16,518 nucleotides of DNA from contig JBBDNF010000060.1 of NCBI GenBank assembly GCA_040877685.1, forward strand, positions 18,817-35,334. Reading direction: 5' to 3'. This DNA comes from Nitrosopumilaceae archaeon. Its GTDB lineage: Archaea; Thermoproteota; Nitrososphaeria; Nitrososphaerales; Nitrosopumilaceae. The translations under genes were made by a program, and so were the position numbers. Below, piece after piece: positions 1,452 to 16,518 of the stretch (position 1 is its first letter; every line of letters begins with the position of its first letter). Below the pieces are notes generated by a model. The model was not told where the DNA came from, did not search any database, and saw nothing but the letters and a program-made list of their open reading frames with translations.

Positions 1452-1458
1452 TATTAGG

Positions 1459-1532
1459 CGCCGCCCGTCAGACTTGAACTGACGACCAGCTGATTAACAG
1501 TCAGCTGCTCTACCACGCTGAGCTAGGGCGGC
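1459..1532 (-). tRNA. tRNA-Asn (anticodon GUU)
   Basis: Hand-folded cloverleaf on the minus strand. Acceptor GCCGCCC/GGGCGGC, D-arm GCTC-AGCGTGGTA-GAGC, anticodon arm GCTGA-CTGTTAA-TCAGC (GTT at positions 34-36), variable loop TGGTC, T-arm GTCAG-TTCAAGT-CTGAC, discriminator G. 74 nt. CC follows, but the full CCA is not encoded. Confidence 0.93.
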
Positions 1533-4977: not shown

Positions 4978-5300
4978 TATGACAAAACCTCCACAACTAC
5001 GAATGAAACGCTCTTTGATATTGGCCTACACTCTGCAGTTAAAACTATATCTCCCTCTTTTACATCAATACAAGACGGTTTGTAGGCATGAATCTTACTT
5101 TGACTACGTGCATATCTTTTGAATTTAGTGATCATTTTTGGAAATTCTTGTTGAATCACAACCATCTTTGGGGCCTTTGAGCTGACCACTTTGCCTTCAA
5201 TTAATTTGCCCCTTACGCTAAGTGTCCCATGGAATGGACACATGAGATCTGTACATTCTGTTTTTGGAGCCTGAACAGAAATTCCAATATTTCTTGTCAT
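4977..5300 (-). CDS. rps17: 30S ribosomal protein uS17 (S17)
   Basis: 107 aa with an archaeal S17 pattern (CPFHG.L.VRG, GDIV...ECRPISK). 1-nt overlap with uL14. Confidence 0.93.
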   Translation of the reverse strand: MTRNIGISVQAPKTECTDLMCPFHGTLSVRGKLIEGKVVSSKAPKMVVIQQEFPKMITKFKRYARSQSKIHAYKPSCIDVKEGDIVLTAECRPISKSVSFVVVEVLS

Positions 5301-5563
5301 GCTTTTGTCCCTACTCTTTCCTGAGGTCTTTTTGCTAAGAGATTTCCATCTATCAGAGTTTCCTTTTTGTCAAAAGAAAACTTCCATTGGGCGTTTGCCT
5401 TTGGAATTTTCTTAATTCCTTTTGCGGTATTAAGAATTAGCATTGATTTTGTTTCGTCGATAATCTTTCCATAGAGCCCAACAGTTTGTGCATTATTACA
5501 CTTGACAACCTCAGCATCAAGTCCTATTAGTTCATGCAGTGTGATATTTTCCTGAGTAATCAT
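5297..5563 (-). CDS. rnp1: RNase P protein component 1 (Rpp29/Pop4 family)
   Basis: 88 aa; LIGLDAEVV...GLYGKIIDETKSMLIL matches the Sm-like Rpp29 core. It occupies the L29-S17 slot where archaea conventionally encode Rpp29. 4-nt overlaps on both sides. Confidence 0.8.
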   Translation of the reverse strand: MITQENITLHELIGLDAEVVKCNNAQTVGLYGKIIDETKSMLILNTAKGIKKIPKANAQWKFSFDKKETLIDGNLLAKRPQERVGTKA

Positions 5564-5763
5564 TGTTTTTTCATCTCGTTTAGTCTTGTCAGTATTCTTG
5601 CAATGTCTCTTCTTAACGGTCGTACTTTCCCATTTTCTTTTCTAAGGGTTCCTTTAGATGCCTCCACACGTAGTTTTGTAAGCTCGGACCGAAGTTGTCC
5701 AAGTCTATCTTTTAGATCTGTTTCATTAAACTCTCGTATAGTCTTCATCTTTAGTCGTGTCAT
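5560..5763 (-). CDS. rpl29: 50S ribosomal protein uL29 (L29)
   Basis: 67 aa, helical, with L..LR.EL..LR pattern. Position after uS3. Confidence 0.9.
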   Translation of the reverse strand: MTRLKMKTIREFNETDLKDRLGQLRSELTKLRVEASKGTLRKENGKVRPLRRDIARILTRLNEMKKQ

Positions 5764-6536
5764 TACTTTAGCTCCTCCTCTGCTTCCTCATATGTTTCTA
5801 CAGATTTGACAAGTTCTTCTTCCTGTGCTATTAATTCACTTTCTGTTCGCGGTTTGGTAGGATCTTCGGGCATTTCTTCTATGACTGCAATTTCTTTCTC
5901 TTCCTCTTCTTCTGCTACTTTTTTCTTGACAGGTTCTTCCTTTTTAGTCGTCTTGAATTCAAATTCTGGAATATAGTTTTCTTTTCTTGCAATTCTGATT
6001 CGCACACCGATAAGTCCCATTTTGGTATTAACGTGAACTATGTCTTCTGATACCACTACATCTGCATGATGACCAGCTCGTGGTAAAATTCCCTTATGAT
6101 GTTTTTCGAAAGAAGAACGTTCTCCTCTAAGTTTGCCAGAAATTGTAATTTGTACACCCATTGCGCCTGCATTCATTATTGTCTGCATGGTCCACATCAC
6201 AGCTCGCCTGAATGCGGTTCCCCTTGCCAAGTGTTGTGACATCCTGTTACACATTACACTTGGGTGCAGTTCAGGTTTGTCTATCTCGATTACAGAGATT
6301 TGTGGGCTCTTAAGCCCAAAGTCTTTTTCAAGTGTTTTAGTCAAGTCGCGTATGCCTGCACCTTTTCTACCTATTACTATTCCAGGTCGTGTTACGTGAA
6401 GTGTAACCCTAGTTCCCGTTGGTGTTTTTTGTATATCTACATCTGAAAATCCAGCTTCTTTGATTGCTTCTCTTAGATAGTCTTTAAGCAACATTATCTT
6501 GTAACTATCATTGATCACGTTTTTTACAGATGACAT
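5763..6536 (-). CDS. rps3: 30S ribosomal protein uS3 (S3) with an acidic C-terminal tail
   Basis: 257 aa with a KH domain (PGIVIGRKGAGIRDL) and S3 C-domain. The last ~63 aa are Glu-rich low complexity. Confidence 0.94.
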   Translation of the reverse strand: MSSVKNVINDSYKIMLLKDYLREAIKEAGFSDVDIQKTPTGTRVTLHVTRPGIVIGRKGAGIRDLTKTLEKDFGLKSPQISVIEIDKPELHPSVMCNRMSQHLARGTAFRRAVMWTMQTIMNAGAMGVQITISGKLRGERSSFEKHHKGILPRAGHHADVVVSEDIVHVNTKMGLIGVRIRIARKENYIPEFEFKTTKKEEPVKKKVAEEEEEKEIAVIEEMPEDPTKPRTESELIAQEEELVKSVETYEEAEEELK

Positions 6537-6537
6537 T

Positions 6538-7005
6538 TTAGATCTCCTGCGCTACAAGCTCCACATGTGTAAGTATGTCTATCTTTGGTGTTGCTCTTCC
6601 CATTGCACGTGGAATAAATCGCTCAATTTTCCTTCCTTTGTGAACAGTTGCGTTTACTATTCTTAGTCTATCTAAATCCATGCCACGATATTCTGCATTT
6701 GATTCTAAATTGTCAAGCAGTTTGATAAATTCATTAGCAGCTTTTTGCGGGTAACGTCCTGACATTACGCCGGTGTCTGATTTGTGTCCAACCTCGTTGT
6801 GATATCTTCTAAAGGCAACAGCTCGTTTTAACTTTACAACATCTTGCAAATAGTCTCTTGCCTTTTCAATTTTCATACCTTTTATTGCAACTGCTATTTC
6901 ACGTGCATGCTTGTGTGAAATCGTTTTTTCTCTTAGGGCAGAGCGTACATGTTTTGTTTTATCGTAGTTTTGAAAAGCGTACTTGAAGTTTGGCATCTCG
7001 ATCAC
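6538..7005 (-). CDS. rpl22: 50S ribosomal protein uL22 (L22)
   Basis: 155 aa; the pattern SHKHAREIAVAIKGM...A..L and position after uS19 fit L22. 4-nt overlap with uS19. Confidence 0.92.
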   Translation of the reverse strand: MIEMPNFKYAFQNYDKTKHVRSALREKTISHKHAREIAVAIKGMKIEKARDYLQDVVKLKRAVAFRRYHNEVGHKSDTGVMSGRYPQKAANEFIKLLDNLESNAEYRGMDLDRLRIVNATVHKGRKIERFIPRAMGRATPKIDILTHVELVAQEI

Positions 7006-7397
7006 TTTAATGGCACATACAAACTAGACCTTGATGCTCCCACACCAGGCGCTCCATGAATTACTCTTTTGTTTGTTCTCACATATTCTCCAGTATAATG
7101 ACCAATCATTTCCGGCTTTATGACAACAGGCACAAACTCTTTCCCAGAAAAAATGTGTATTGTAAGCCCTGTCATGTAAGGCATAATAATCAAATCCCTA
7201 AGGTGCGTTTTGATTGGAATCGCGAGTTTGCCTGCTTTTGTCAGTTTTATTTCGTCTAACAACTTTCTTTTGCCATCAGTTATTCCTCTGGTTAAAGATC
7301 TTCTAGATCTGGCTGGTAAAAGCGCAAATAGCTTTTCTAGTGACAGGTTCTGAAGCTCCTCCGTTCCAATTCCTCGATATTTAAATTCTTTAACCAT
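7002..7397 (-). CDS. rps19: 30S ribosomal protein uS19 (S19)
   Basis: 131 aa; FKYRGIGTEELQNLSLEKLFALLPARSRRSL...GKEFVPVVIKPEMIGHYTGEY...HGAPGVGASRSS is classic archaeal S19. Confidence 0.94.
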   Translation of the reverse strand: MVKEFKYRGIGTEELQNLSLEKLFALLPARSRRSLTRGITDGKRKLLDEIKLTKAGKLAIPIKTHLRDLIIMPYMTGLTIHIFSGKEFVPVVIKPEMIGHYTGEYVRTNKRVIHGAPGVGASRSSLYVPLK

Positions 7398-7438
7398 TCA
7401 AACTCACCATTATGCGACTGGATTCAAGGCAGACCATA

Positions 7439-7705
7439 TTATAGCATTCCTATCTTTGTTGCAAGATCCCTTGCCTTTTCTGTGGTCTGGAATTTTACAA
7501 AGGCCTTTTTCCCGTAAACTGTCTTGCACACATTTACGGCAGTAGGCTCTTCGTTGTATAGAATTTTAACCGCCTCCATGATTTTTGGTTTGGTGGCATT
7601 ATGCTTTACTATAAAGCATATCCTGTTTTCTTTTTCAACCAACGCAAAGGTCTTTTCTGTAATGTATGGCTTAAGAACTATCTGAATAGCTTCGTCGGCA
7701 TTCAT
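7439..7705 (-). CDS. rpl23: 50S ribosomal protein uL23 (L23)
   Basis: 88 aa; ...KPYITEKT......N...F.V...ATKP.I..AV and position after uL4 fit L23. Confidence 0.92.
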   Translation of the reverse strand: MNADEAIQIVLKPYITEKTFALVEKENRICFIVKHNATKPKIMEAVKILYNEEPTAVNVCKTVYGKKAFVKFQTTEKARDLATKIGML

Positions 7706-8517
7706 CTTGTCGTCACCATAAGCTCCAAGTGCGGAGATTTTATTTTTGCAAGTTCTTCAATTGCACTTTTTGAAAATACTGTTAATCTGATTGGATGTGC
7801 GCCCGGAACCAAATCTAATACACTTAGGCTGTCTACAGACTTTACGTCTACGCCCAAGAATGTTCCACAGGCCTTAACCAGATTCTTTGAGTCCTTTACT
7901 ACAATTAGTACACTTTTACCCACCTTGGTTTTCCTACCACGTAAAAGCGGCTTACCAGAACGACGCTTTAGCCTTGATCTTAATCTGTCTACATCTTGTG
8001 TCAAATTCAACGCGTCAAAGAATTTTGCCAAGTCTTTTGATTTTGATATTGATTCAATTTCATCAGAGACAACAATTGGAAATGATTCTAGCTTGTCGAT
8101 TTTGTGACCTCGTGATTTTATTAATGATACAGATGCGGTAGCGGCAATTGCGGAACAAAGTGCAAGTTTGTTTTCTTTTTTGTTTAACATTTTGTAAACT
8201 ATTTTTTCTGTGGTGGGCGGGTGTGCTTGCCTTCCTCCTCTTACCATAGCCACTCCACCGCCTTGGCCTTGCCTTCCACCGCCTCCACCACGCAGTCTTG
8301 CGACTCTTGCCTGATGATGACCCGTTGGAGGACTGTTTGATTCTGCTACTACATCCATACCAGCATTGGCGTATCGTCCTTGAACCTGAAAGTGATGTGA
8401 TTCAAGATTCACATACGCTTTGTGTAAGAGATCAGTTCTAAGTGGAGTAGAAAATACAAGTGGTAATTCCATCTCGCCCGCGTTTGAACCATTTATTGAA
8501 AAAACCGGTGCTTTCAT
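7702..8517 (-). CDS. rpl4: 50S ribosomal protein uL4 (L4/L1e)
   Basis: 271 aa with the Gly/Arg-rich extended loop (RLRGGGGGRQGQGGGVAMVRGGRQAHPP) typical of L4. 4-nt overlaps with uL3 and uL23. Confidence 0.94.
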   Translation of the reverse strand: MKAPVFSINGSNAGEMELPLVFSTPLRTDLLHKAYVNLESHHFQVQGRYANAGMDVVAESNSPPTGHHQARVARLRGGGGGRQGQGGGVAMVRGGRQAHPPTTEKIVYKMLNKKENKLALCSAIAATASVSLIKSRGHKIDKLESFPIVVSDEIESISKSKDLAKFFDALNLTQDVDRLRSRLKRRSGKPLLRGRKTKVGKSVLIVVKDSKNLVKACGTFLGVDVKSVDSLSVLDLVPGAHPIRLTVFSKSAIEELAKIKSPHLELMVTTR

Positions 8518-9506
8518 ATCATTATCTCCAAAACATTGGGTGGCGTTATTTTTGAAACTCTATGTCGCATTGGAGATCGTAGCTTGACTAACCGCCGGTA
8601 TGTTCCAGGAATTGATCCTCGTATCACAACATAGTCTCCATCTACCAGCCCAAAATGCTTGAATCCTCCTAAAGGATTGATTTTGAACTCATTAGTTTTT
8701 GTATTGCTAATTATCATAATTCTATTATTGTATTGTGTTCTTTGGTGGAATCCACGTTGACCTGCCCTTGGAACTGTATACATTATTGTAGCAGGACTGA
8801 TTGGACCCAATGTGCCAAGGGCCCTTACACTCTTTCTTGATTTGTGCTGTTTCTTTTTTACACCCCATCTTGTGATTGGGCCTTCAATTCCTTTTCCTTT
8901 TGTTATGGCAGCGACATCAACATCAGCGCCTTTTTGAAAAACTTGCTCAACTTTAACTTCCTTACCCAAAAGATCTTTGACAAAGGCAAATTGTTTGGCA
9001 ATATCGCCACCTTTTACAGCCACTTCAAAAACGTATGGTTTTTTTTGCTCCCTACCAGCTTGCTGTGGAAGGACAGCTACGATGGCAAAAAGATCAGAAA
9101 CCCTTCCAAGTGACTTTTCAGCTCTTTCAAGGCTTTTTTCATCCGACTTTGCAGTAAACAGTCTTGATAGCTCCTTTGGCAGATCTTTTGCATAAACATC
9201 AAAAATTGAATCTAGTCCGTATCTGTCTTTTGAATAGCCACGAATGCCAATTACTGTAAGAGGTGGTGTTACAACTACAGTCCCAAGGCTTACAAGCTGC
9301 TTACCAAAGTTTGGAGTCTTCTCTCTATCATCTATGCTAGCAATACGTATGCACCCAGCTTTGAATCCTGCATGCGCCATAAGTTTTGGCTGATCTCCAT
9401 CCTGATCGGGCCAACTGCGAATTCTTGCTTCCATGCTTTTAGCTCGCGCTCTTGGAAGATATGCAAGGCTTCCCCGCCTTGGTTGGCTATGTTTTCTATG
9501 ACCCAT
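8514..9506 (-). CDS. rpl3: 50S ribosomal protein uL3 (L3)
   Basis: 330 aa; the N-terminus MGHRKHSQPRRGSLAYLPR and the ...GKGIEGPITRWGV motif are diagnostic of archaeal L3. First gene of the operon. Confidence 0.95.
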   Translation of the reverse strand: MGHRKHSQPRRGSLAYLPRARAKSMEARIRSWPDQDGDQPKLMAHAGFKAGCIRIASIDDREKTPNFGKQLVSLGTVVVTPPLTVIGIRGYSKDRYGLDSIFDVYAKDLPKELSRLFTAKSDEKSLERAEKSLGRVSDLFAIVAVLPQQAGREQKKPYVFEVAVKGGDIAKQFAFVKDLLGKEVKVEQVFQKGADVDVAAITKGKGIEGPITRWGVKKKQHKSRKSVRALGTLGPISPATIMYTVPRAGQRGFHQRTQYNNRIMIISNTKTNEFKINPLGGFKHFGLVDGDYVVIRGSIPGTYRRLVKLRSPMRHRVSKITPPNVLEIMI

Positions 9507-9533
9507 GGATAAACGCTAAATGTCGTAAACCCC

Positions 9534-9541
9534 ATTATAAG
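9534..9541 (-). promoter_or_regulatory. candidate TATA box of the r-protein operon
   Basis: The minus strand reads CTTATAAT about 31 nt upstream of the uL3 ATG, implying a very short leader. Positional and compositional evidence only. Confidence 0.3.
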
Positions 9542-9591
9542 TCTACTATTAAAAATAATAATTTGAACTAATTTTTATGTAAATTTCGAAA

Positions 9592-9705
9592 TTATAGATT
9601 TAAGAAATCTGTTACTGTCATTACGATAATTATTCCGCCCATTATAATTCCTGCAATGCCAGCTGCAATTGCAAAAAGCAAGAATCGTTTTTGTTTTGAC
9701 AACAT
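9592..9705 (-). CDS. possible 37-aa single-pass membrane micro-protein
   Basis: Hand translation gives MLSKQKRFLLFAIAAGIAGIIMGGIIIVMTVTDFLNL*: a basic N-terminus followed by one hydrophobic helix. It lies in the 229-bp gap between the SPOUT gene and uL3. Below the ORF-track size cut-off and could be a chance ORF. Confidence 0.25.
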   Translation of the reverse strand: MLSKQKRFLLFAIAAGIAGIIMGGIIIVMTVTDFLNL

Positions 9706-9735
9706 AATTATGTAAATTTAAAAATAATATTAAAC

Positions 9736-10551
9736 TTAATTGCGTGTAAAGACGTTTAAGATTGCCAAAGTACCAAGTATAGCTTCTTCCAGACGCACTG
9801 TTTCGGTGGCCTGCTCTGGGAAGAAATTTAGAATCTGTGATCGTGGGATCTCATTTATTGCCTTTCCTAGAATTTCATGCAATCCCCTTTCAGGCGAACC
9901 AAAAACAACAAGCAATTGATTGTCTGAAATTTTATCAAAGTACTTTTGCATTTTGTGTATGGTTTTGCCTTTTTTTGAAGTTAGTATTATGTCCGAGCCC
10001 CAGTTAGTTAGAAGTGTGCGTAAATTTGCACTCTCTCTTATCTCATAGCCCCAATATTGCATTATCTCATTCCTAGAAATCTGCTTTGCTGAAAGTTCTG
10101 GAAAATCAGTTTTAAATTGCATGCTAACTCTTCTCCCTACTTTGTCTTCTCCAAAATATTGTACAAGTCGATCAAGTCCAACGTCAACATATTTTTTTCC
10201 TTTTGCAAAAACTATCATGCCTTCTCTTATATCGCCAGCTTTGATTTTTCTTGAATCTGAGGTATAGGAATGATGTGGAATCTTTAATGGACTAAGACTC
10301 CCAGCAAACCTTAGTTCAGAAATTTTTTGAAAAAGCCCTCGCCGTAAATATTGCGGTGTCTCAAGATACTTTAGTATAATACGTAAGAGTGATCTGTCTT
10401 GTTCGCTTCCAGAGCTTTCATGATAAATGTAAATGGTTTGTATACGAAATATTGCACATGCTCTTGCAATTAATGATATTTTCATTGATTTGCCAAGCTG
10501 TGTTGATTCGTCTTTAATTGACGAATCAGGAATTGCAATTGAAATTTTCAA
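9736..10551 (-). CDS. putative SPOUT-superfamily RNA methyltransferase (DUF171 / COG2106, C9orf114-like)
   Basis: 271 aa. The N-terminal strand ISIAIPDS followed by ISLIARACAIFRIQTIYIY, plus the C-terminal VVFGSPERGL...E...LR.EEAI pattern, match my recollection of this family, which often precedes rpl3 in archaea. The start is TTG (10551-10549), the only start-type codon after the upstream in-frame stop. Confidence 0.7.
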   Translation of the reverse strand: MKISIAIPDSSIKDESTQLGKSMKISLIARACAIFRIQTIYIYHESSGSEQDRSLLRIILKYLETPQYLRRGLFQKISELRFAGSLSPLKIPHHSYTSDSRKIKAGDIREGMIVFAKGKKYVDVGLDRLVQYFGEDKVGRRVSMQFKTDFPELSAKQISRNEIMQYWGYEIRESANLRTLLTNWGSDIILTSKKGKTIHKMQKYFDKISDNQLLVVFGSPERGLHEILGKAINEIPRSQILNFFPEQATETVRLEEAILGTLAILNVFTRN

Positions 10552-10589
10552 TAACCAGAGTACTTATTTGCGTTATAAAACGGTAGAGA

Positions 10590-11339
10590 TTAGCTCTGTC
10601 TTTTTGTGGCGTGTTCTTTTGCTTTTGTTGCGTATCTTTCAATGTCTTTTTCTGGCACTTTAGAAAGAAGCTTCGTATCGTTTTGGATTTGTGACATCTT
10701 GATGTGTTTTACACCTTCCTTATCCTCGCTGACAAGATATATTGATTCTATTGCAAGTGCAGCCGCGTCTTCTGTTGTCATATCTTTTTTGTAGAATTTT
10801 TCCAGATATTCAGTTACTTGATCAGCACCTGAACCAATTGCGACCGCATCATATGAGATGTATGTTCCACTTGGATCTGTAAGATATATTGTACTTCCAC
10901 TTCTGTCTACGCCGGCAATTATTAATGCAACACCAAATGGTCTAACTCCAGCGTACTGAGTAAACTGCTGGCACTGATCTGCAAGATGCTTTGCAACTGA
11001 CTCTACCTCGACTGGTTCATCATAGATCATTCTGTTACTTTGTGCGAAAAATCGTGCGTTATCTACTTGACTTCGTGCATCTGGAATGTATCCAGCTGCA
11101 GCAACCCCAATGTGATCATCAACTTGAAATATCTTCTGGGTTACCTCTGCATTTTGTAGTTTGCGTGGTTTTTCTTCTACAGCAAGAATAATGCCGTCTT
11201 CACTTTTAATTCCAATTGCAAGTGTTCCTCTTCGAACAGTTTCAATTGCGTATTCTACTTGGTATAATCTACCGTCAGGAGAAAATACTGTGATTGCTCT
11301 ATCATATCCTGCAGCTGCTGGTAACAATTCAATTTTCAT
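10590..11339 (-). CDS. psmA: proteasome subunit alpha
   Basis: 249 aa; YDRAITVFSPDGRLYQVEYA is the canonical alpha-subunit N-terminal signature, and the rest has the Ntn-hydrolase fold pattern. Confidence 0.95.
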   Translation of the reverse strand: MKIELLPAAAGYDRAITVFSPDGRLYQVEYAIETVRRGTLAIGIKSEDGIILAVEEKPRKLQNAEVTQKIFQVDDHIGVAAAGYIPDARSQVDNARFFAQSNRMIYDEPVEVESVAKHLADQCQQFTQYAGVRPFGVALIIAGVDRSGSTIYLTDPSGTYISYDAVAIGSGADQVTEYLEKFYKKDMTTEDAAALAIESIYLVSEDKEGVKHIKMSQIQNDTKLLSKVPEKDIERYATKAKEHATKRQS

Positions 11340-11379
11340 ACCTTTGAAGGTTTAATTTAAGTCTAGTGCTATCACGATC

Positions 11380-11796
11380 GTGCATTTCGAGATCCCATTT
11401 TACGGTCACGAAAATATTCGATCACTACATCAGAAAACTATCGAGATAACAACAGAATCAGAACTCACACTACAAGGAAATTGCATAATAGGAGTGCGTG
11501 CAAGTTGTGGTTGTAATGACATTCCAGAAAAAATGAAAAATCTTTTGCGTGCTTCAAAATCAGATGTGTTATTTACAATTACAGTAAAAGATCTTTCCTT
11601 TAAAGTAAAAGGCAGAGGTCACAAGGATCTGATTTTGACTAACCCCCACGATATAGTAATTAGAAAAAGCTCCTTTATCTGTCCACGGACTTTGGCTACG
11701 TATTGTGACAAAGCATCAGATTCCATTCCACGCAACATAATCAGACTCTTACAAAACCAAGATTCCTTTGGAGTCTTTGCGATAGATGTCAGCTAG
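11380..11796 (+). CDS. conserved archaeal protein of unknown function (DUF371-like)
   Basis: 138-aa ORF with a GTG start. GHENIRSLHQKTIEITTE...LTLQGNCIIGV resembles the DUF371/COG2090 family as I recall it. The family assignment needs a profile search. Confidence 0.65.
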   Translation: MHFEIPFYGHENIRSLHQKTIEITTESELTLQGNCIIGVRASCGCNDIPEKMKNLLRASKSDVLFTITVKDLSFKVKGRGHKDLILTNPHDIVIRKSSFICPRTLATYCDKASDSIPRNIIRLLQNQDSFGVFAIDVS

Positions 11797-12369
11797 TTAT
11801 TTTTTAGATATAAAGTTTCTCTTTCTTGTAGACAATGCGTTATGACTAAATCCATTGTTTTCAAATACATTTGTCACAGCACGATTTACTATTTCTAATA
11901 AGACATATTTATCATAGTCTTGTTCAGAATTTTCGCCGTTTCCAAGATTTTTCTTTTTTATTTTTGATGTACTTTTTTGAGCAAGATTTTTGATTATTTT
12001 TTCCATTTTGACAGAAGTGTCAGTTATTGTTTTTAAAAACTCTGAATCAAAGTTTGGTGGAATTGTATATCCCAATAGATTTATTGATGTACCATAAAAT
12101 TTCATTACAGCTCCACGGATCTCTTCCATCCTAACAATTTCCACAAGACCTGCATTTTTTAGTACGTCCAGATGATACCTGATTGTTGTAGTAGCTTTGT
12201 TGTATCCTGCCTTATGTAATTCATCAGCTATTTGTTCTGCAGAAAGCTGTCTACGATACAAAGTTTGAAGGATTTTTATCCTTGCTTTGTCATCTAGCGC
12301 TTTGGCTTGTTCAACGTTTGTTGTGACTATTCGGTTCACTTTGAGGTCTTTTTGTAATAGCGTAGACAT
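11797..12369 (-). CDS. ArsR-family winged-helix transcriptional regulator with a C-terminal extension
   Basis: 190 aa; ALDDKARIKILQTLYRRQLSAEQIADELHKAGYNKATTTIRYHLDVLKNAGLVE is a typical ArsR/SmtB-type wHTH. The C-terminal ~90 aa are unassigned. Its stop abuts the stop of the convergent DUF371-like gene with no gap. Confidence 0.8.
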   Translation of the reverse strand: MSTLLQKDLKVNRIVTTNVEQAKALDDKARIKILQTLYRRQLSAEQIADELHKAGYNKATTTIRYHLDVLKNAGLVEIVRMEEIRGAVMKFYGTSINLLGYTIPPNFDSEFLKTITDTSVKMEKIIKNLAQKSTSKIKKKNLGNGENSEQDYDKYVLLEIVNRAVTNVFENNGFSHNALSTRKRNFISKK

Positions 12370-12513
12370 TTCGTCATTGAATTAAGATTTGGCCTAAAAG
12401 ATCACGATATCATAATTTTTTGCTTAACGTGTTATTTTTTTTATGCTAGAAAAGTTGTAAGAATACAAGACCTGTCCTTATTCTACAATATAACATATCT
12501 TAAAATCATTTAC

Positions 12514-12543
12514 ATGGTACCATAACTATGTAACTAGTACCAT
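12514..12543. promoter_or_regulatory. composite palindrome ATGGTAC-N16-GTACCAT (candidate operator)
   Basis: ATGGTACCAT (12514-12523) is a perfect 10-bp palindrome, and GTACCAT recurs at 12537-12543 (20-bp spacing). Between them lies TAACTA-TG-TAACTA. The site is in the 286-bp spacer upstream of the ArsR-type gene. Confidence 0.3.
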
Positions 12544-12655
12544 TACAATAAAATACAAAAATTTTTTAAAAAAAGCATTTTTTGAGAATTCTAGGAATTT
12601 TGCTATCAGTCAAAGCCTAAAATGGGCAAAAGATCCTTTTACAATCAATATTAAA

Positions 12656-13483
12656 TTAGAGTGAATGGCCAGTTATCCGTTCGTATGCTGTAATGTATCT
12701 TTCAGACATTTGCTGGCACAGCTCTGGTGGTAGTTCTGGGGCAACAGGATTCTTGCCTGTACTTCTTTCCATTTCAAATCTCTGTTGATAGCCACGTTCA
12801 GCTAACCAATCACGAAGAAGCTGTTTGTCATAGCTTTCTTGAACTTTACCTACCTTGTAGGTATCTTTTGGCCACATCCTATATTCATCAGGACCAATTG
12901 AATCTCCAATTAGTATTTGTTCTCTTGATTTTCCAAATTCTAATTTCAAGTCAGCCAGTATGAATCCGCCATCTTCTGCTATTTTTGTCATGTTTTTGTA
13001 AACGCCAATAGAGGTCTCTTCTAGCCAATCGTACTCTTTTGAACTAACAAGGTTCCTTGCAACTGCGTCTTTTTTAGTTATTGGCACATCATGTGTTTCT
13101 GATTTTGTTGTGGGATCAAACACGGGTTGTGGCAGCTTGGTAGCCATTGTAGTATCTGTATTTTTTGATAAAGTGATCTCACCATTTTTCCATCTCGTTA
13201 CAAAACTGCCATAAAAATATCCTCTAACAACGCATTCTATTGGCATCATGTTTAGTTTTTTTACTACCAATCTGTCGTTTGCTTCTGTTCTAACATAGTG
13301 ATTAGGATATGGAAGTTGTTTAAACCAGAACTCAGCAAACTTGCAAAGCACCTCACCTTTTCTAGGAATTGGGGTTGGAAATTTTACATCAAATGCAGAC
13401 ACCCTGTCACTAAAATGAAAGAGTAAATTCACATCATCAAGCTCGTAAATGTCTTTTACCTTACCTGAACGAAGAAATCTCAA
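12656..13483 (-). CDS. purC: phosphoribosylaminoimidazole-succinocarboxamide (SAICAR) synthase
   Basis: 275 aa; GKVKDIYE...FSDRVSAFD...LADLKLEFG...IGDSIGPDEYRMW are SAICAR-synthase motifs. The start is TTG (13483-13481), immediately after an in-frame stop. Confidence 0.93.
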   Translation of the reverse strand: MRFLRSGKVKDIYELDDVNLLFHFSDRVSAFDVKFPTPIPRKGEVLCKFAEFWFKQLPYPNHYVRTEANDRLVVKKLNMMPIECVVRGYFYGSFVTRWKNGEITLSKNTDTTMATKLPQPVFDPTTKSETHDVPITKKDAVARNLVSSKEYDWLEETSIGVYKNMTKIAEDGGFILADLKLEFGKSREQILIGDSIGPDEYRMWPKDTYKVGKVQESYDKQLLRDWLAERGYQQRFEMERSTGKNPVAPELPPELCQQMSERYITAYERITGHSL

Positions 13484-13535
13484 TCATCCGTCATTTGACT
13501 ACGTCTGATTTAAACTGATATTGGTACGTATCGAA

Positions 13536-13907: not shown

Positions 13908-14005
13908 TATACCAAAACCAGTTTTTACTAACTATAAAGTCTAACTTAACTATATTGTGCAAATAGCCATATTGCTTAAATCCAACACAGGCGGTTTGAG
14001 GCGAC

Positions 14006-15169
14006 ATGAGTCTTAAAACTCAAGGAAAAACACCCGAACAGGCACTAGAAGATTACCTGGATTCAATACACATTCAGTCTCATAGTCAAGCATCCGTTAA
14101 TTCATATCGTACTGCAATTATCGGAGTAAAAAACGGGTTTAGGATATTTTTAAAAGAAAAATACAATTGTGATGAAATACAGCTTAGAGCAAGGATACAA
14201 AACCAGGAGCTAGACGTTTACAACATTCTAAACGAGTATGCTATTTTTCTGGATAAAAAAGGACTCAAACCAAAGACCATAAGGCTATGGTTTACAGTCG
14301 TTAAAGGCTATCTTACGCACTTGCAGGTAGAGGTTTTTTCAGAAAAATGCAAGCAAAGGATCAAGCTTCCAAAGGTCAGACGATTAAAAAAAGAGGCTTT
14401 AACAAAAGAAATTCTAGTCAAATTACTTCGTAACCTAGACGCTAAACTACAAACTGCCGTGCTTGTGGCCACATCAAGCGGTATGAGAGTTGGTGAAATA
14501 GCTGGCCTGACTCTAGCCGATATTGAGTTTAATCATGAACCTGTTAAAATTAACGTAAGAGCTGAAACCTCAAAATCAAGAGAGGACAGGGAGACTTTTC
14601 TAACAAACGAGGCCTCAGAAGCGTTAAAGGATTATCTCAAGCGTTATTTTGGTTGGAAGGATGACAACTCAAATTCACAATTACAGGGCCTTAGAGTCTT
14701 TGGGCGAACAAGTAAAATCAGAACGGGTAGCTTGAAAGGTCGATTGCCAAAGCTAGAAGAACAGCTATCAGACGCTATTTTACTCCAAAAAACTCTAGCT
14801 GGAAGAATTGCAAAGGTTCCAGAATTAAATCGGCTAGGCCGCAATGGTAGGAAAGTAATACATTTTCACGCCTTTAGAGAGTTTTTCTATACTGTTGTCA
14901 GTAACGTGTCAGGATCTAATTTTGCTCATGCCTTAATGGGCCATCATGAATACCTGGATACATACTATGCATTATCGGAGACGCAACAAATCAAGCTGTA
15001 TCAGAAAGCTATGCCTTATCTGACGGTATCAGATTATAGCAGGATAGAGCGAGATTTGGAGAAAATTCAAAACACTCAAGATGGATTACTTGAAAAATAT
15101 GCCGAGTTTGAGCGATACCTAAGAGCTAAAGACCCCTCATTTTTGGAATTTCTAAAAAAGAATAAATAA
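14006..15169 (+). CDS. tyrosine recombinase / phage-type integrase (appears intact)
   Basis: 387 aa with an N-terminal SAM-like core-binding region. The catalytic set is readable: R in SSGMRVGEIAGL, TSKSREDR beta-hairpin Lys, H-x-x-R in HFHAFREFF, H in LMGHHEY, and nucleophile Tyr in LDTYY. It is longer than the ~280-aa archaeal XerA. GAGG lies 4 nt before the ATG. Confidence 0.9.
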   Translation: MSLKTQGKTPEQALEDYLDSIHIQSHSQASVNSYRTAIIGVKNGFRIFLKEKYNCDEIQLRARIQNQELDVYNILNEYAIFLDKKGLKPKTIRLWFTVVKGYLTHLQVEVFSEKCKQRIKLPKVRRLKKEALTKEILVKLLRNLDAKLQTAVLVATSSGMRVGEIAGLTLADIEFNHEPVKINVRAETSKSREDRETFLTNEASEALKDYLKRYFGWKDDNSNSQLQGLRVFGRTSKIRTGSLKGRLPKLEEQLSDAILLQKTLAGRIAKVPELNRLGRNGRKVIHFHAFREFFYTVVSNVSGSNFAHALMGHHEYLDTYYALSETQQIKLYQKAMPYLTVSDYSRIERDLEKIQNTQDGLLEKYAEFERYLRAKDPSFLEFLKKNK

Positions 15170-15173
15170 AATG
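15134..15173 (+). repeat. direct repeat, left copy (3' end of the integrase gene, ...PSFLEFLKKNK*)
   Basis: Aligns without gaps to 16264..16303 (offset exactly 1130 bp). 30/40 nt are identical by hand count, including the exact 11-mer TTTTGGAATTT. Confidence 0.6.
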
Positions 15174-15183
15174 TATGGATCTG

Positions 15184-15192
15184 TTTTTATCG
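15184..15192 (+). promoter_or_regulatory. candidate TATA box of the nuclease gene
   Basis: TTTTTATCG is centred about 25 nt upstream of the ATG at 15213, implying a leaderless or near-leaderless transcript independent of the integrase. Positional evidence only. Confidence 0.3.
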
Positions 15193-15212
15193 ATCTTTAG
15201 TAGATAGATTAC

Positions 15213-16235
15213 ATGCCATACTGCTCTGGTTGTGGGAATGAAGTTAAATTAGATGCAAAATTCTGTTCTGAGTGCGGAAAAAAGGTAAAAGTTGAACAAG
15301 AAGAACCAGAAGTTTTAGAAACTGACGAACCTGTGGTTGAGATGAAACCTATTACAGAACCTGAACAAATTGAGTCGGATGGTTCACGAATAGGTGGCAG
15401 AGATGGTGGAGAATGGCTAGAAAAAACTGTAGAAAGCATATTCAAAAATGCAAACTTCCAAACTAAAACACAAGAAAACGTTCCTATCATGGGTGAGGAC
15501 TCAAAATCATTCAAGATAGATGTCTTAGCAGATGACGGCAAACATGTGGTGTTTGTTGAATGTAAAGACTACGTCGAACCTCAACAGAAATCATTGTGGG
15601 AATTTATTGGCCAGTTAAAGACGTTCAGAGAGAGACAGAACAGACGGGTAATAGGCGTACTTGCAGTATCAAAAAGAAATGATGATAGGTTCAAAGATTG
15701 GAGAAAAAAACTAGAACAGGATGACTCGGTTCTTTTTGATGGCAGTATAATTGAGAGTTTTCAGACAAAAAGAGCTGAGCTCGGCAATAATGCCGATTTT
15801 TACAATTATCTTGCTAATTTCCTCAATATTGAAGTCAAAAAATCGAATCAGGAAGACAATGCAGTAAAGTACAGAGTCAGATTCAACTTTCGTACAATAG
15901 AACCAAGAGAATACATAGGAGGAAAATATGATCCTCTGATTATTCTGTCAGATATTGAAAAAAAGTTACCTTCTCATATCAAAAGAGCACACTATCAACA
16001 AGATAAAAACTCACCACAGATCTTTGCAGATTATTTCTTTAATTACGATGACCCTAATATTGCAAAACAAGAAAAGAAGGGGTTTTTAGCAAGACTATTG
16101 AGTAATGACTCATACGACAAGTTACTTGAAAAGGACTTGGAGCGAGTAAAAGAGATTATAAAAAAAACATATGGCATAAGCAAAGATAAACAGAACAAAA
16201 TTGAACATACTGTGGCACGGGAAGGCCGTGATTAA
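15213..16235 (+). CDS. zinc-ribbon + Mrr-like PD-(D/E)xK restriction-endonuclease-fold protein with an uncharacterised C-terminal domain
   Basis: 340 aa. C4-x2-C7...C18-x2-C21 zinc ribbon, then an acidic linker. The nuclease core follows: GGEWLEKTVESIF (E67/E70), FKIDVLADDG (D103), VVFVECKDY (E116-x-K118, nt 15558-15566). Residues ~186-340 have no motif I recognise. Confidence 0.8.
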   Translation: MPYCSGCGNEVKLDAKFCSECGKKVKVEQEEPEVLETDEPVVEMKPITEPEQIESDGSRIGGRDGGEWLEKTVESIFKNANFQTKTQENVPIMGEDSKSFKIDVLADDGKHVVFVECKDYVEPQQKSLWEFIGQLKTFRERQNRRVIGVLAVSKRNDDRFKDWRKKLEQDDSVLFDGSIIESFQTKRAELGNNADFYNYLANFLNIEVKKSNQEDNAVKYRVRFNFRTIEPREYIGGKYDPLIILSDIEKKLPSHIKRAHYQQDKNSPQIFADYFFNYDDPNIAKQEKKGFLARLLSNDSYDKLLEKDLERVKEIIKKTYGISKDKQNKIEHTVAREGRD

Positions 16236-16263: not shown

Positions 16264-16303
16264 CCTTTGCTTTTGGAATTTTTGAAAAGAAATAAAGAAA
16301 ATT
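16264..16303 (+). repeat. direct repeat, right copy: relic of an integrase-like 3' end (reads PLLLEFLKRNKEN*)
   Basis: In the frame equivalent to the integrase it matches PSFLEFLKKNK at 8/11 residues. It is cut off upstream by an in-frame TAA at 16258-16260, so it is non-functional. Confidence 0.55.
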
Positions 16304-16339
16304 AAAACCTAGGCATTTAATTCCCATAATCTTTCTACC

Positions 16340-16361
16340 GTTGAACCCTTGTTGAACCCTT
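16340..16361. repeat. perfect tandem duplication of the 11-mer GTTGAACCCTT
   Basis: GTTGAACCCTT appears at 16340-16350 and again at 16351-16361, followed by GTTGTTGTTGG. Confidence 0.9.
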
Positions 16362-16374
16362 GTTGTTGTTGGTT

Positions 16375-16427
16375 TTTGGTTATGTTTGGTTCTGTTTTGG
16401 TTGATTCTTGCTAATTTTTGGTTGATT
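16375..16427. repeat. four phased copies of TTTGGTT (two extended to TTTTGGTTGATT)
   Basis: TTTGGTT occurs at 16375, 16385, 16396 and 16417 (spacings 10, 11 and 21 bp). The 12-mer TTTTGGTTGATT occurs at 16395-16406 and 16416-16427. No ORF covers this region on either strand. Confidence 0.85.
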
Positions 16428-16518
16428 TTTGTTCAGTTCAGCTCTGATCTGTTCTGTAGATTTGCAAGGGTATACCCCACACTAGTACACCTAGGTATTC
16501 CATATGTCTGGCATATGT

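Follow-up and report, generated by a model that had tools for sequence, protein, structure and literature searches.

The stretch of DNA analysed here (the window; 16,518 nt of contig JBBDNF010000060.1 from a Nitrosopumilaceae archaeon) carries, directly behind a tyrosine integrase gene, a complete open reading frame (ORF) for a protein of 340 amino acids (aa). The protein combines a C4 zinc ribbon, a predicted nuclease core of the Mrr_cat type and a C-terminal domain of a new family. Comparison with related loci indicates that this gene is exchangeable cargo of integrative elements rather than part of their backbone, and that it entered the integrase gene at its 3' end together with its own putative promoter. 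We tentatively propose a role in defence or in conflict between mobile elements. An identical protein is deposited at NCBI under the title 'zinc ribbon domain-containing protein [Nitrosopumilaceae archaeon]'. Below, L numbers denote loci with homologues of the nuclease or relatives of the integrase, and P numbers denote related proteins.

Domain anatomy and nuclease core

A preliminary description of the locus, made from the sequence alone, had divided the translation into a C4 zinc ribbon, an acidic linker, a PD-(D/E)xK core of the Mrr_cat type with D103 and E116-x-K118, and a C-terminal part without a recognisable family. This division was confirmed in our analysis, which gave the following parts:

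15213..16235, + strand: full ORF with ATG start, 340 aa (zinc ribbon, linker, Mrr-type nuclease, C-terminal domain)
15219..15287, + strand: C4 zinc ribbon, residues 3-25 (C4, C7, C19, C22), Pfam Zn_Ribbon_1
15288..15398, + strand: acidic, Pro-containing disordered linker, residues 26-62; predicted local distance difference test (pLDDT) <50 at residues 29-56
15399..15767, + strand: predicted Mrr_cat-type PD-(D/E)xK core, residues 63-185 (hhalign, conserved residues, fold matches)
15768..15824, + strand: two-helix connector, residues 186-204 (model helices 177-190 and 193-203)
15825..16232, + strand: C-terminal domain, residues 205-340 (domain model)

The zinc ribbon matched Zn_Ribbon_1 with 26.8 bits (cut-off 25), and its CxxC...CxxC cysteines are invariant in alignment A3, which comprises related proteins with a zinc ribbon and an Mrr_cat domain. 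Direct reading of the sequence gave one cysteine only outside the ribbon, C117. The linker varies in length and sequence among relatives. For the core, AlphaFold2 predicted an alpha-beta-beta-beta-alpha-beta-alpha-beta topology with pLDDT ~90 over residues 68-175 (helices 68-79 and 125-139; strands 83-91, 99-107, 111-118 and 145-152). In this model E70, D103, E116 and K118 are located on the secondary-structure elements expected for a PD-(D/E)xK nuclease. These four residues, which are the catalytic candidates, are at least 90% conserved in a set of 24 sequences and belong to the positions that do not vary at all among 15 relatives with identities as low as ~30% (G66, W68, L69, E70, D103, E116, C117, K118, D119 and Y120). 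E67, which the preliminary description had named together with E70, is replaced by Ser in P0007 and P0008 and is thus not conserved. A single clear exception to the conservation of the core residues was found in the family alignment A2: P0023 reads FVGFKHG for FVECKDY at residues 114-120, i.e. E116G, and is probably catalytically dead. In the connector, F196 and Y199 are conserved.

An exhaustive phmmer search gave 139 matches, comprising about 25 true full-length or partial relatives, a majority that share the zinc ribbon only, and a third group aligning to residues 1 to ~140 with phmmer E values of 5e-8 to 8e-4. All ten members of the third group that were checked combine a zinc ribbon with an Mrr_cat domain (PF04471, E 1e-13 to 2e-20). 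When A2 was compared with A3 by hhalign, residues 63-181 aligned with a probability of 98.4% (E 4.4e-15), and E70, D103 and E116-C-K118 stood opposite the invariant E, D and E-C-K of A3. Moreover, PF04471 directly matched 5 of the 24 family members at E<=0.1 (best 9.1e-13), and RRG7, a family related to Mrr_cat, was matched by seven. The locus scans described below used alignment A1, A2 being too diverse. Since the window protein itself lies under the cut-off of the PF04471 model, its assignment rests on profile-profile and transitive evidence, and it is best regarded as a divergent member of the Mrr_cat type. Taken over the family, this evidence strongly supports a biochemical assignment of the core to the Mrr_cat branch of PD-(D/E)xK nucleases, and we infer that the protein would act as a metal-dependent endonuclease with DNA as its substrate.

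The structural comparison pointed to the same fold. Foldseek neighbours of the core in the PDB were VC1899, Can2, AF1548, MspJI, NucS and Hjc, and also Bax1, and the top matches in the PDB and in BFVD were all nucleases of the restriction endonuclease (REase) fold. The best of them (Can2/Card1/VC1899 and AF1548; PDB 8q3y, 1xmx, 1y88) gave E values of 1e-4 to 5e-4 over ~130-150 columns. They share 13-15% identity with the window protein, which lacks the CARF/cyclic-oligoadenylate sensor, so the match is one of fold level only. In a sequence-profile search of the PDB, AF1548 was likewise the best natural protein (E 0.06), exceeded by a de novo designed protein only. Hjc was rejected as an identity, with Foldseek E 0.015 for 1ob8 and a Pfam Hjc match in one of 24 members (E 0.009), since the Mrr_cat match is much stronger. 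Cas4 is also a PD-(D/E)xK nuclease and matches residues 66-158 of the window protein below threshold. This identity was rejected as well: PF01930 scored 15.8 against 22.7 bits and TIGR00372 13.2 against 65, the C-terminal four-cysteine Fe-S motif is absent, and Mrr_cat is far stronger. Cas4 genes are known from some thaumarchaeal casposons (PMC6563490).

The closest architectural relatives are uncharacterised zinc ribbon and Mrr_cat proteins such as P0062, P0044 and P0140. They share the N-terminal C4 ribbon, the variable linker, the core residues in register and a terminal '…LWDG…' strand-helix, whereas the ferredoxin-like C-terminal domain described below is replaced in them by other, often Cys-rich, C-termini. 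A literature search for zinc ribbon and Mrr_cat proteins found nothing. A survey of thaumarchaeal integrated elements, in which 63-82% of the proteins were without functional annotation, does not discuss the family (PMC6563490); arCOG08677, one of the five most frequent arCOGs in that survey and annotated as 'Zn-ribbon domain containing protein', comprises members of ~130 aa and was rejected as another family. The nuclease core is of a known kind; the family is unnamed and uncharacterised.

The C-terminal domain and separable modules

Residues 205-340, modelled alone from 18 sequences, were predicted to form a ferredoxin-like beta-alpha-beta-beta-alpha-alpha-beta sandwich (pLDDT 81.5; predicted template modelling score 0.74) with Y234, D273, Y320-G321 and R336 conserved. 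No family in Pfam, NCBIfam, PADLOC or PHROG covered residues ~205-340, and residues 63-340 as a whole matched none in NCBIfam, PADLOC or PHROG. Similarly, Foldseek gave no match in the PDB at E<=1e-3 for this domain, and the PDB sequence-profile search gave nothing. Resemblances to EF-1beta, SEA, IS200 TnpA and ACT domains were rejected as non-specific ferredoxin-like fold matches, none of which reached E<=1e-3. An IS200-type nuclease is moreover unlikely, as there is no conserved HUH motif.

The domain also occurs by itself. When a large protein database was searched by profile, at least 12 clusters of proteins of 115-143 aa came up that are 51-59% identical to it, and two of our loci encode stand-alone versions of ~130 aa (L020:1876-2259 and L019:72-506; P0169-P0180). 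At L020, homology to the window begins at about residue 200-221, the motif of the putative promoter is kept, and ~150 bp of intergenic DNA only separates the gene from a divergently transcribed gene of 574 aa. This layout shows that the stand-alone genes are genuine. They arose by deletion of the zinc ribbon and the nuclease part, and they adjoin host genes, namely Rieske and AdoHcyase genes and one that by eye is NurA-like. Their products may be inhibitors or remnants. Besides, L002 and P0003-5 lack the zinc ribbon and keep the promoter motif. In L007 and P0015 it is the C-terminal domain that has been lost, and none of the frames contains a remnant of it. The nuclease core is the sole module common to the full-length forms and both kinds of single-module deletion, and the flanking modules are separable. 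The novelty lies in the three-module architecture, in the family of the C-terminal domain and in the cassette behaviour described next.

Insertion into the 3' end of the integrase gene

The preliminary description had placed the gene 43 bp behind a co-oriented integrase, with a TATA-like box of its own ~25 nt before the ATG and an imperfect direct repeat on both sides. All of this held, as the ORF coordinates, the PF00589 match and the homologous loci show:

14006..15169, + strand: tyrosine integrase, 387 aa (PF00589, E 8e-14)
15140..15175, + strand: upstream copy of the direct repeat, the present, altered integrase 3' end (…FLEFLKKNK*)
15177..15191, + strand: putative cassette promoter, a conserved motif of GGATCT (15177-15182) and TATA-like TTTTTATC (15184-15191)
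16270..16305, + strand: downstream copy of the direct repeat, the relic of the original integrase 3' end with its stop codon (match to L045)

In the direct repeat, 27 of 32 positions are identical between 15141-15172 and 16271-16302, and the best value across 500 composition-matched resamplings was 23 of 32. The downstream copy (16270-16305) agrees at 35 of 36 nt with the integrase 3' end, stop codon included, of L045, a locus without the nuclease (91% over 46 nt), and it also matches L022 and L028. This near-identity marks the downstream copy as the displaced original end of the integrase gene. Accordingly, a segment of ~1.13 kb, comprising a new integrase tail (…FLEFLKKNK*), the putative promoter and the nuclease gene, was inserted within the final ~50 nt of that gene. 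The integrase at L021 agrees fully with that of the window as far as …GGAATTTCTAAA, beyond which the 3' end of an inverted cassette follows directly. An orphan integrase-end relic was found in the window only and at none of the other loci examined. Candidate mechanisms for the insertion are a Campbell-type single crossover of a circle, deletion within tandem elements, site-specific capture and homing. In the casposon at L004, an internal duplicate of the Cas1 3' end (5144-5224; 85% aa identity to Cas1 residues 321-347) flanks an ORF of 200 aa, a duplication that parallels the integrase-end duplication in the window.

The motif of GGATCT and TTTTTATC lies ~25 nt 5' of the ATG. The homologues in L011, L007, L004 and L003 are preceded by a conserved copy of this pair, those in L013 and L015 by a variant. 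It is kept across alleles of only 30-43% protein identity and also by the derivatives without the zinc ribbon and those reduced to the C-terminal domain. It may thus be taken as a putative promoter that travels with the nuclease gene, and the ~25-nt spacing suggests a leaderless or near-leaderless transcript.

An integron-type cassette was considered and rejected: integron-integrase models scored 30.4 against 265 bits, the flanking repeat exists at one locus and both orientations occur. A related idea, which we regard as improbable, is an autonomous mobile cassette of ~1.1 kb, consisting of promoter and gene, that enters the 3' ends of recombinase genes and would be of a kind undescribed in archaea. 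Possibly the recombinase of the element captures the cassette at a site overlapping its own 3' end in an integron-like manner; alternatively, the nuclease might drive its own insertion by homing. Such a cassette would explain the 36-nt relic, the junction used in both orientations and the spread across elements, and also the existence of derivatives that consist of the C-terminal domain alone, which might be dominant-negative inhibitors.

Cargo status and exchange of alleles

The element of the window and that of L007 occupy the same insertion site, and their integrases are 79% identical at the aa level, whereas their nuclease alleles are only 43% identical. At the nt level the region 13952-15157 is 78% identical to L007, compared with 65-68% for the host flanks (5146-13486; ribosomal-protein genes and purC). 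In L039, a third lineage (purC 76% aa, integrase 83% aa), an element lies at the same purC-side site. The conservation of the integrase above that of the host flanks, together with the site in L039, suggests that a single element family has recently spread by horizontal transfer and entered a fixed target site. The nuclease allele of L007 finds its close match elsewhere, namely in the casposon L004 (84% at the protein level; 79.5% nt over 643 bp, beginning ~40 bp 5' of the ATG).

Relatives of the integrase were found in metagenomes at 27 further loci (46-89% identity), and in 13 of these, each with at least 680 bp of downstream sequence, the nuclease is absent. Moreover, the position and orientation of the nuclease gene differ between elements. 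The 13 nuclease-free elements, the mismatch of alleles, the travelling promoter and the integrase-end relic together show that the nuclease gene is exchangeable cargo and not element backbone.

These data also bear on the idea that the protein is a housekeeping nuclease of the mobile element, either a Holliday-junction resolvase or NucS-like enzyme or an accessory of recombination or replication. Its place directly behind a co-oriented integrase, its presence in two kinds of self-integrating elements and the fold matches to NucS/EndoMS, Hjc and Bax1 would agree with such a function, and Cas4, NERD and HNH nucleases have been proposed as helpers of casposon integration (PMC6563490). However, 13 elements with a related integrase do without the gene, its position and orientation vary, its alleles are swapped independently of the backbone, and the L007-type element, which has a truncated copy only, is nevertheless found on 16 contigs. 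As the Hjc and NucS matches are also much weaker than that to Mrr_cat, we consider a housekeeping function improbable.

In related elements, the slot behind the integrase is filled by other genes. At L032 (1275-2063, - strand) it holds a HEPN_AbiV gene (51.7 bits, cut-off 27.1; PADLOC AbiV, E 1e-5), and L024 (1347-1837) and L042 (1365-1718) carry DUF5615 PIN-like genes there. The L024 gene is preceded by an ORF of 50 aa. Elsewhere the slot holds various unknown genes, and recognisable conflict genes make up 3 of ~13 alternative occupants. Thaumarchaeal integrative elements thus carry recognisable abortive-infection or toxin cargo behind the integrase. Hotspots of defence cargo have been documented in bacterial P2 phages and P4 satellites (PMC9122126). 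Similar to these, related elements here have, among conserved backbone genes, a variable slot at the integrase side with alternative candidate conflict genes (nuclease, AbiV, DUF5615); unlike them, the elements are archaeal and have an integrase of another family.

Distribution and carrier elements

Among 185,579 species-representative genomes the family was found at seven loci, all from Nitrosopumilaceae or Nitrososphaerota. It is a small family and appears confined to Nitrosopumilaceae. Viral carriage was rejected, as a scan of IMG/VR found no relative and the BFVD matches were of the generic REase fold only.

The carriers differ. L007-L010 are integrase elements at the purC-side site of the window, and L003 is an island of ~9 kb opened by a different integrase. 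L011/L021 have the integrase (88% aa) and the nuclease (87% aa) of the window arranged convergently. In the casposon of L004-L006 the nuclease gene lies between Cas1 (PF01867, E 3.5e-48) and a family-B polymerase (PHROG, E 4e-61). L004:2952-12131 reads as a complete family-1-type casposon of ~9.2 kb with a PolB of the protein-primed type, perfect terminal inverted repeats of at least 25 bp (ATAAAAAGGGAAAGCCCCCCTCCCA) and the target duplication TAAAGGTCT, and its nuclease homologue is located at 5906-7003. Six distant loci (L012-L017) are discussed below; one of them lies beside an insertion-sequence (DDE) transposase, and the host genes flanking L014 and L015 are common to both and differ in their order. 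At L017, a protein of 379 aa (6825-7961) with a C-terminal NucS_C domain (PF01939, E 1e-14) is encoded ~2 kb upstream of the distant nuclease homologue. Decay is frequent in the family: the copy in L007 is truncated, two in all are disrupted (L015 frameshifted; L018 disrupted), and P0023 carries E116G.

The variable, integrase-linked context given in the preliminary description is thus valid for alleles of at least 37% identity and for L003, which reside in integrase elements or the casposon, and it does not extend to the six distant loci, which lie among host genes. The homologues do not share one fixed core-genome context.

The distribution bears on what we regard as the main rival of a conflict role, a selfish homing-type nuclease cassette that would cut the cassette-free site, for example the 3' end of a recombinase gene, and be copied in by repair. 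Such a cassette would spread across elements without benefit to host or element. It is consistent with an insertion in the terminal ~50 nt of the integrase gene that restored the frame and kept the original end as a relic, and with the cassette of L011/L021 abutting the same integrase junction in the opposite orientation. The sporadic occurrence (filled sites in the window, L011/L021 and L007, empty ones in 13 related integrase loci), the many decayed copies and the transfer between casposon and integrase element would fit as well. However, that transfer occurred without shared flanks beyond the ~40 bp of the promoter, unlike homology-driven homing; the orphan integrase-end relic is confined to the window; and the genes in L003, L004 and L012-L017 are not beside a recombinase 3' end. 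To our knowledge, no homing endonuclease of the Mrr_cat type has been described. Altogether we consider homing unlikely, yet ahead of the remaining alternatives.

A family of ribbon-helix-helix (RHH) proteins of ~105-140 aa, with an N-terminal RHH domain and an acidic linker, is often encoded next to the nuclease gene or the integrase. Its C-terminal ISYDGGKTW motif is conserved, as seen in the copies of L002, L004 and L007. The copies are:

L002:2423-2758
L003:6609-6929
L004:7000-7308
L007:14933-15259
L011:3306-3632
L025:3361-3789
L036:7170-7556

These proteins raise the question of an addiction system of the toxin-antitoxin type, in which the RHH protein of ~105 aa or the nuclease's own C-terminal domain would neutralise the nuclease as a toxin. 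The RHH family is present in five loci, immediately adjacent to the nuclease gene in L002, L004 and L011; the C-terminal domain, stand-alone in the clusters described above with the promoter kept, could act as an inhibitor; and in sister elements the slot behind the integrase is taken by DUF5615 PIN-like toxins. On the other hand, there is no RHH gene in the 283 bp downstream of the nuclease gene or elsewhere in the window. Where an RHH gene is adjacent it is usually convergent (L002, L004) and not operonic, and in L003 and L007 it is distant. RHH genes are moreover common backbone genes of thaumarchaeal elements (PMC6563490), and that of L036 stands beside an integrase without the nuclease. 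With adjacency inconsistent and the gene absent from the window, the RHH protein was rejected as an obligate partner or antitoxin, and an addiction function of any kind seems highly doubtful.

A possible role in conflict between elements

We tentatively favour a role of the nuclease in defence or inter-element conflict, somewhat short of an even chance in our judgement and ahead of each of the alternatives above. In this role the element-borne nuclease would cut incoming DNA of viruses or rival elements and might work alone, in the manner of a type IV restriction enzyme; alternatively, it could be a toxic nuclease that is activated. The zinc ribbon and the C-terminal domain would serve to bind the target, to form oligomers or to regulate the enzyme. 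Alleles are swapped between unrelated thaumarchaeal mobile elements, namely tyrosine-integrase elements and the casposon.

This preference is based on the usual roles of the catalytic family, the lack of a methyltransferase in the gene lists examined, the accessory status of the gene, the swapping of alleles, the frequent decay of copies and the conflict genes in the slot. Nucleases of the Mrr type typically act in defence or conflict, Mrr itself being a type IV restriction enzyme, and Mrr-like effector domains are recurrent in the defence literature. No DNA methyltransferase was present in the called genes of L003, L004 and L007, the three elements whose extent is defined or nearly complete and in which many small ORFs are unannotated, and solitary action is proposed because no such partner was seen. 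The window protein is similar to E. coli Mrr and MspJI in its catalytic fold family and as a solitary nuclease with no methyltransferase in the gene lists examined. It differs from them in having a zinc ribbon and a new C-terminal domain instead of a winged-helix or SRA-like reader, and in its domain order.

Several observations weigh against this interpretation. PADLOC-DB v2 held no defence model for the window protein or for the alleles of L004 and L013, and the window protein gave only weak Cas4 matches there (E 0.0024). Pfam showed no match to a modified-base reader (SRA, PUA/EVE or winged helix) in the window protein, so that only the catalytic family and the lack of a methyltransferase speak for the analogy with type IV enzymes. 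Nor does the protein have a recognisable sensor. Moreover, the window protein had no PF04471 match even at E<=1 (gathering threshold 21 bits), and Cas4 was its sole sub-threshold nuclease match in Pfam. The element is covered only as far as position 16518, where the window ends inside it, 283 bp past the nuclease gene. At L036 the slot behind the integrase holds the backbone genes RHH and MCM, which makes slot association weak evidence. L012-L017 are islets among host genes on complete Nitrosopumilus chromosomes, with no integrase or recombinase in the ORFs tested. Finally, the sporadic distribution, the decay and the insertion into a conserved gene would fit a selfish homing-type nuclease equally well. 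The defence role, which the preliminary description put forward as an inference, gains from the AbiV and PIN-like genes in the equivalent slot and finds no counterpart among the known defence models; as a whole, the observations of that description were confirmed and its interpretation supported.

Other features of the locus

Two further features of the element lie outside the region described so far:

13952..14005, + strand: left edge of the element, a conserved region upstream of the integrase (…AAATAGCCATATTGCTTAA…) at which similarity to L007 (78%) and L011 (86%) begins
16340..16431, no strand assigned: T-rich tandem repeats of period 10-11, GTTGAACCCTT x2.4 followed by ~6 degenerate GTTGATTTTTG-like units

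The AAATAGCCATATTGCTTAA motif is common to the window, L007 and L011. Upstream of the integrase, a ribosomal-protein operon, purC and a small ORF are all syntenic with L007. The integrase gave a XerA-like match far under the equivalog cut-off. The T-rich repeats stand directly 3' of the integrase-end relic and could be iterons, an attachment (att) region or a binding array. Neither an ORF nor an RHH gene was detectable in their region. As to the att sites of the element, just one exact repeat of 12 nt was found in L007, and it was not significant. A tRNA-Asn (GTT) gene at 1457-1532 (- strand), near the left end of the window and far from the element, is not used as its target. An antisense ORF of 110 aa (15209-15541, - strand) overlaps the 5' third of the nuclease gene and is most likely spurious, as the + frame is the one conserved across relatives. 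The G+C content of the window is ~33-44%.

Implications

Nitrosopumilaceae that oxidise ammonia count among the most abundant of all archaea, and most of what their viruses and mobile elements carry as cargo lacks annotation. The locus adds a candidate element-borne nuclease in the inter-element conflict of Nitrosopumilaceae and a new, foldable family of C-terminal domains. It also provides an example, by comparison of filled and empty sites, of the entry of cargo beside an integrase and of its movement to or from casposons. If the defence role is true, integrase-side defence hotspots, a pattern known from bacterial phages and satellites, would also exist in archaeal elements. Should the homing or the autonomous-cassette reading be true, the locus would represent a new mode of gene mobility in archaea.

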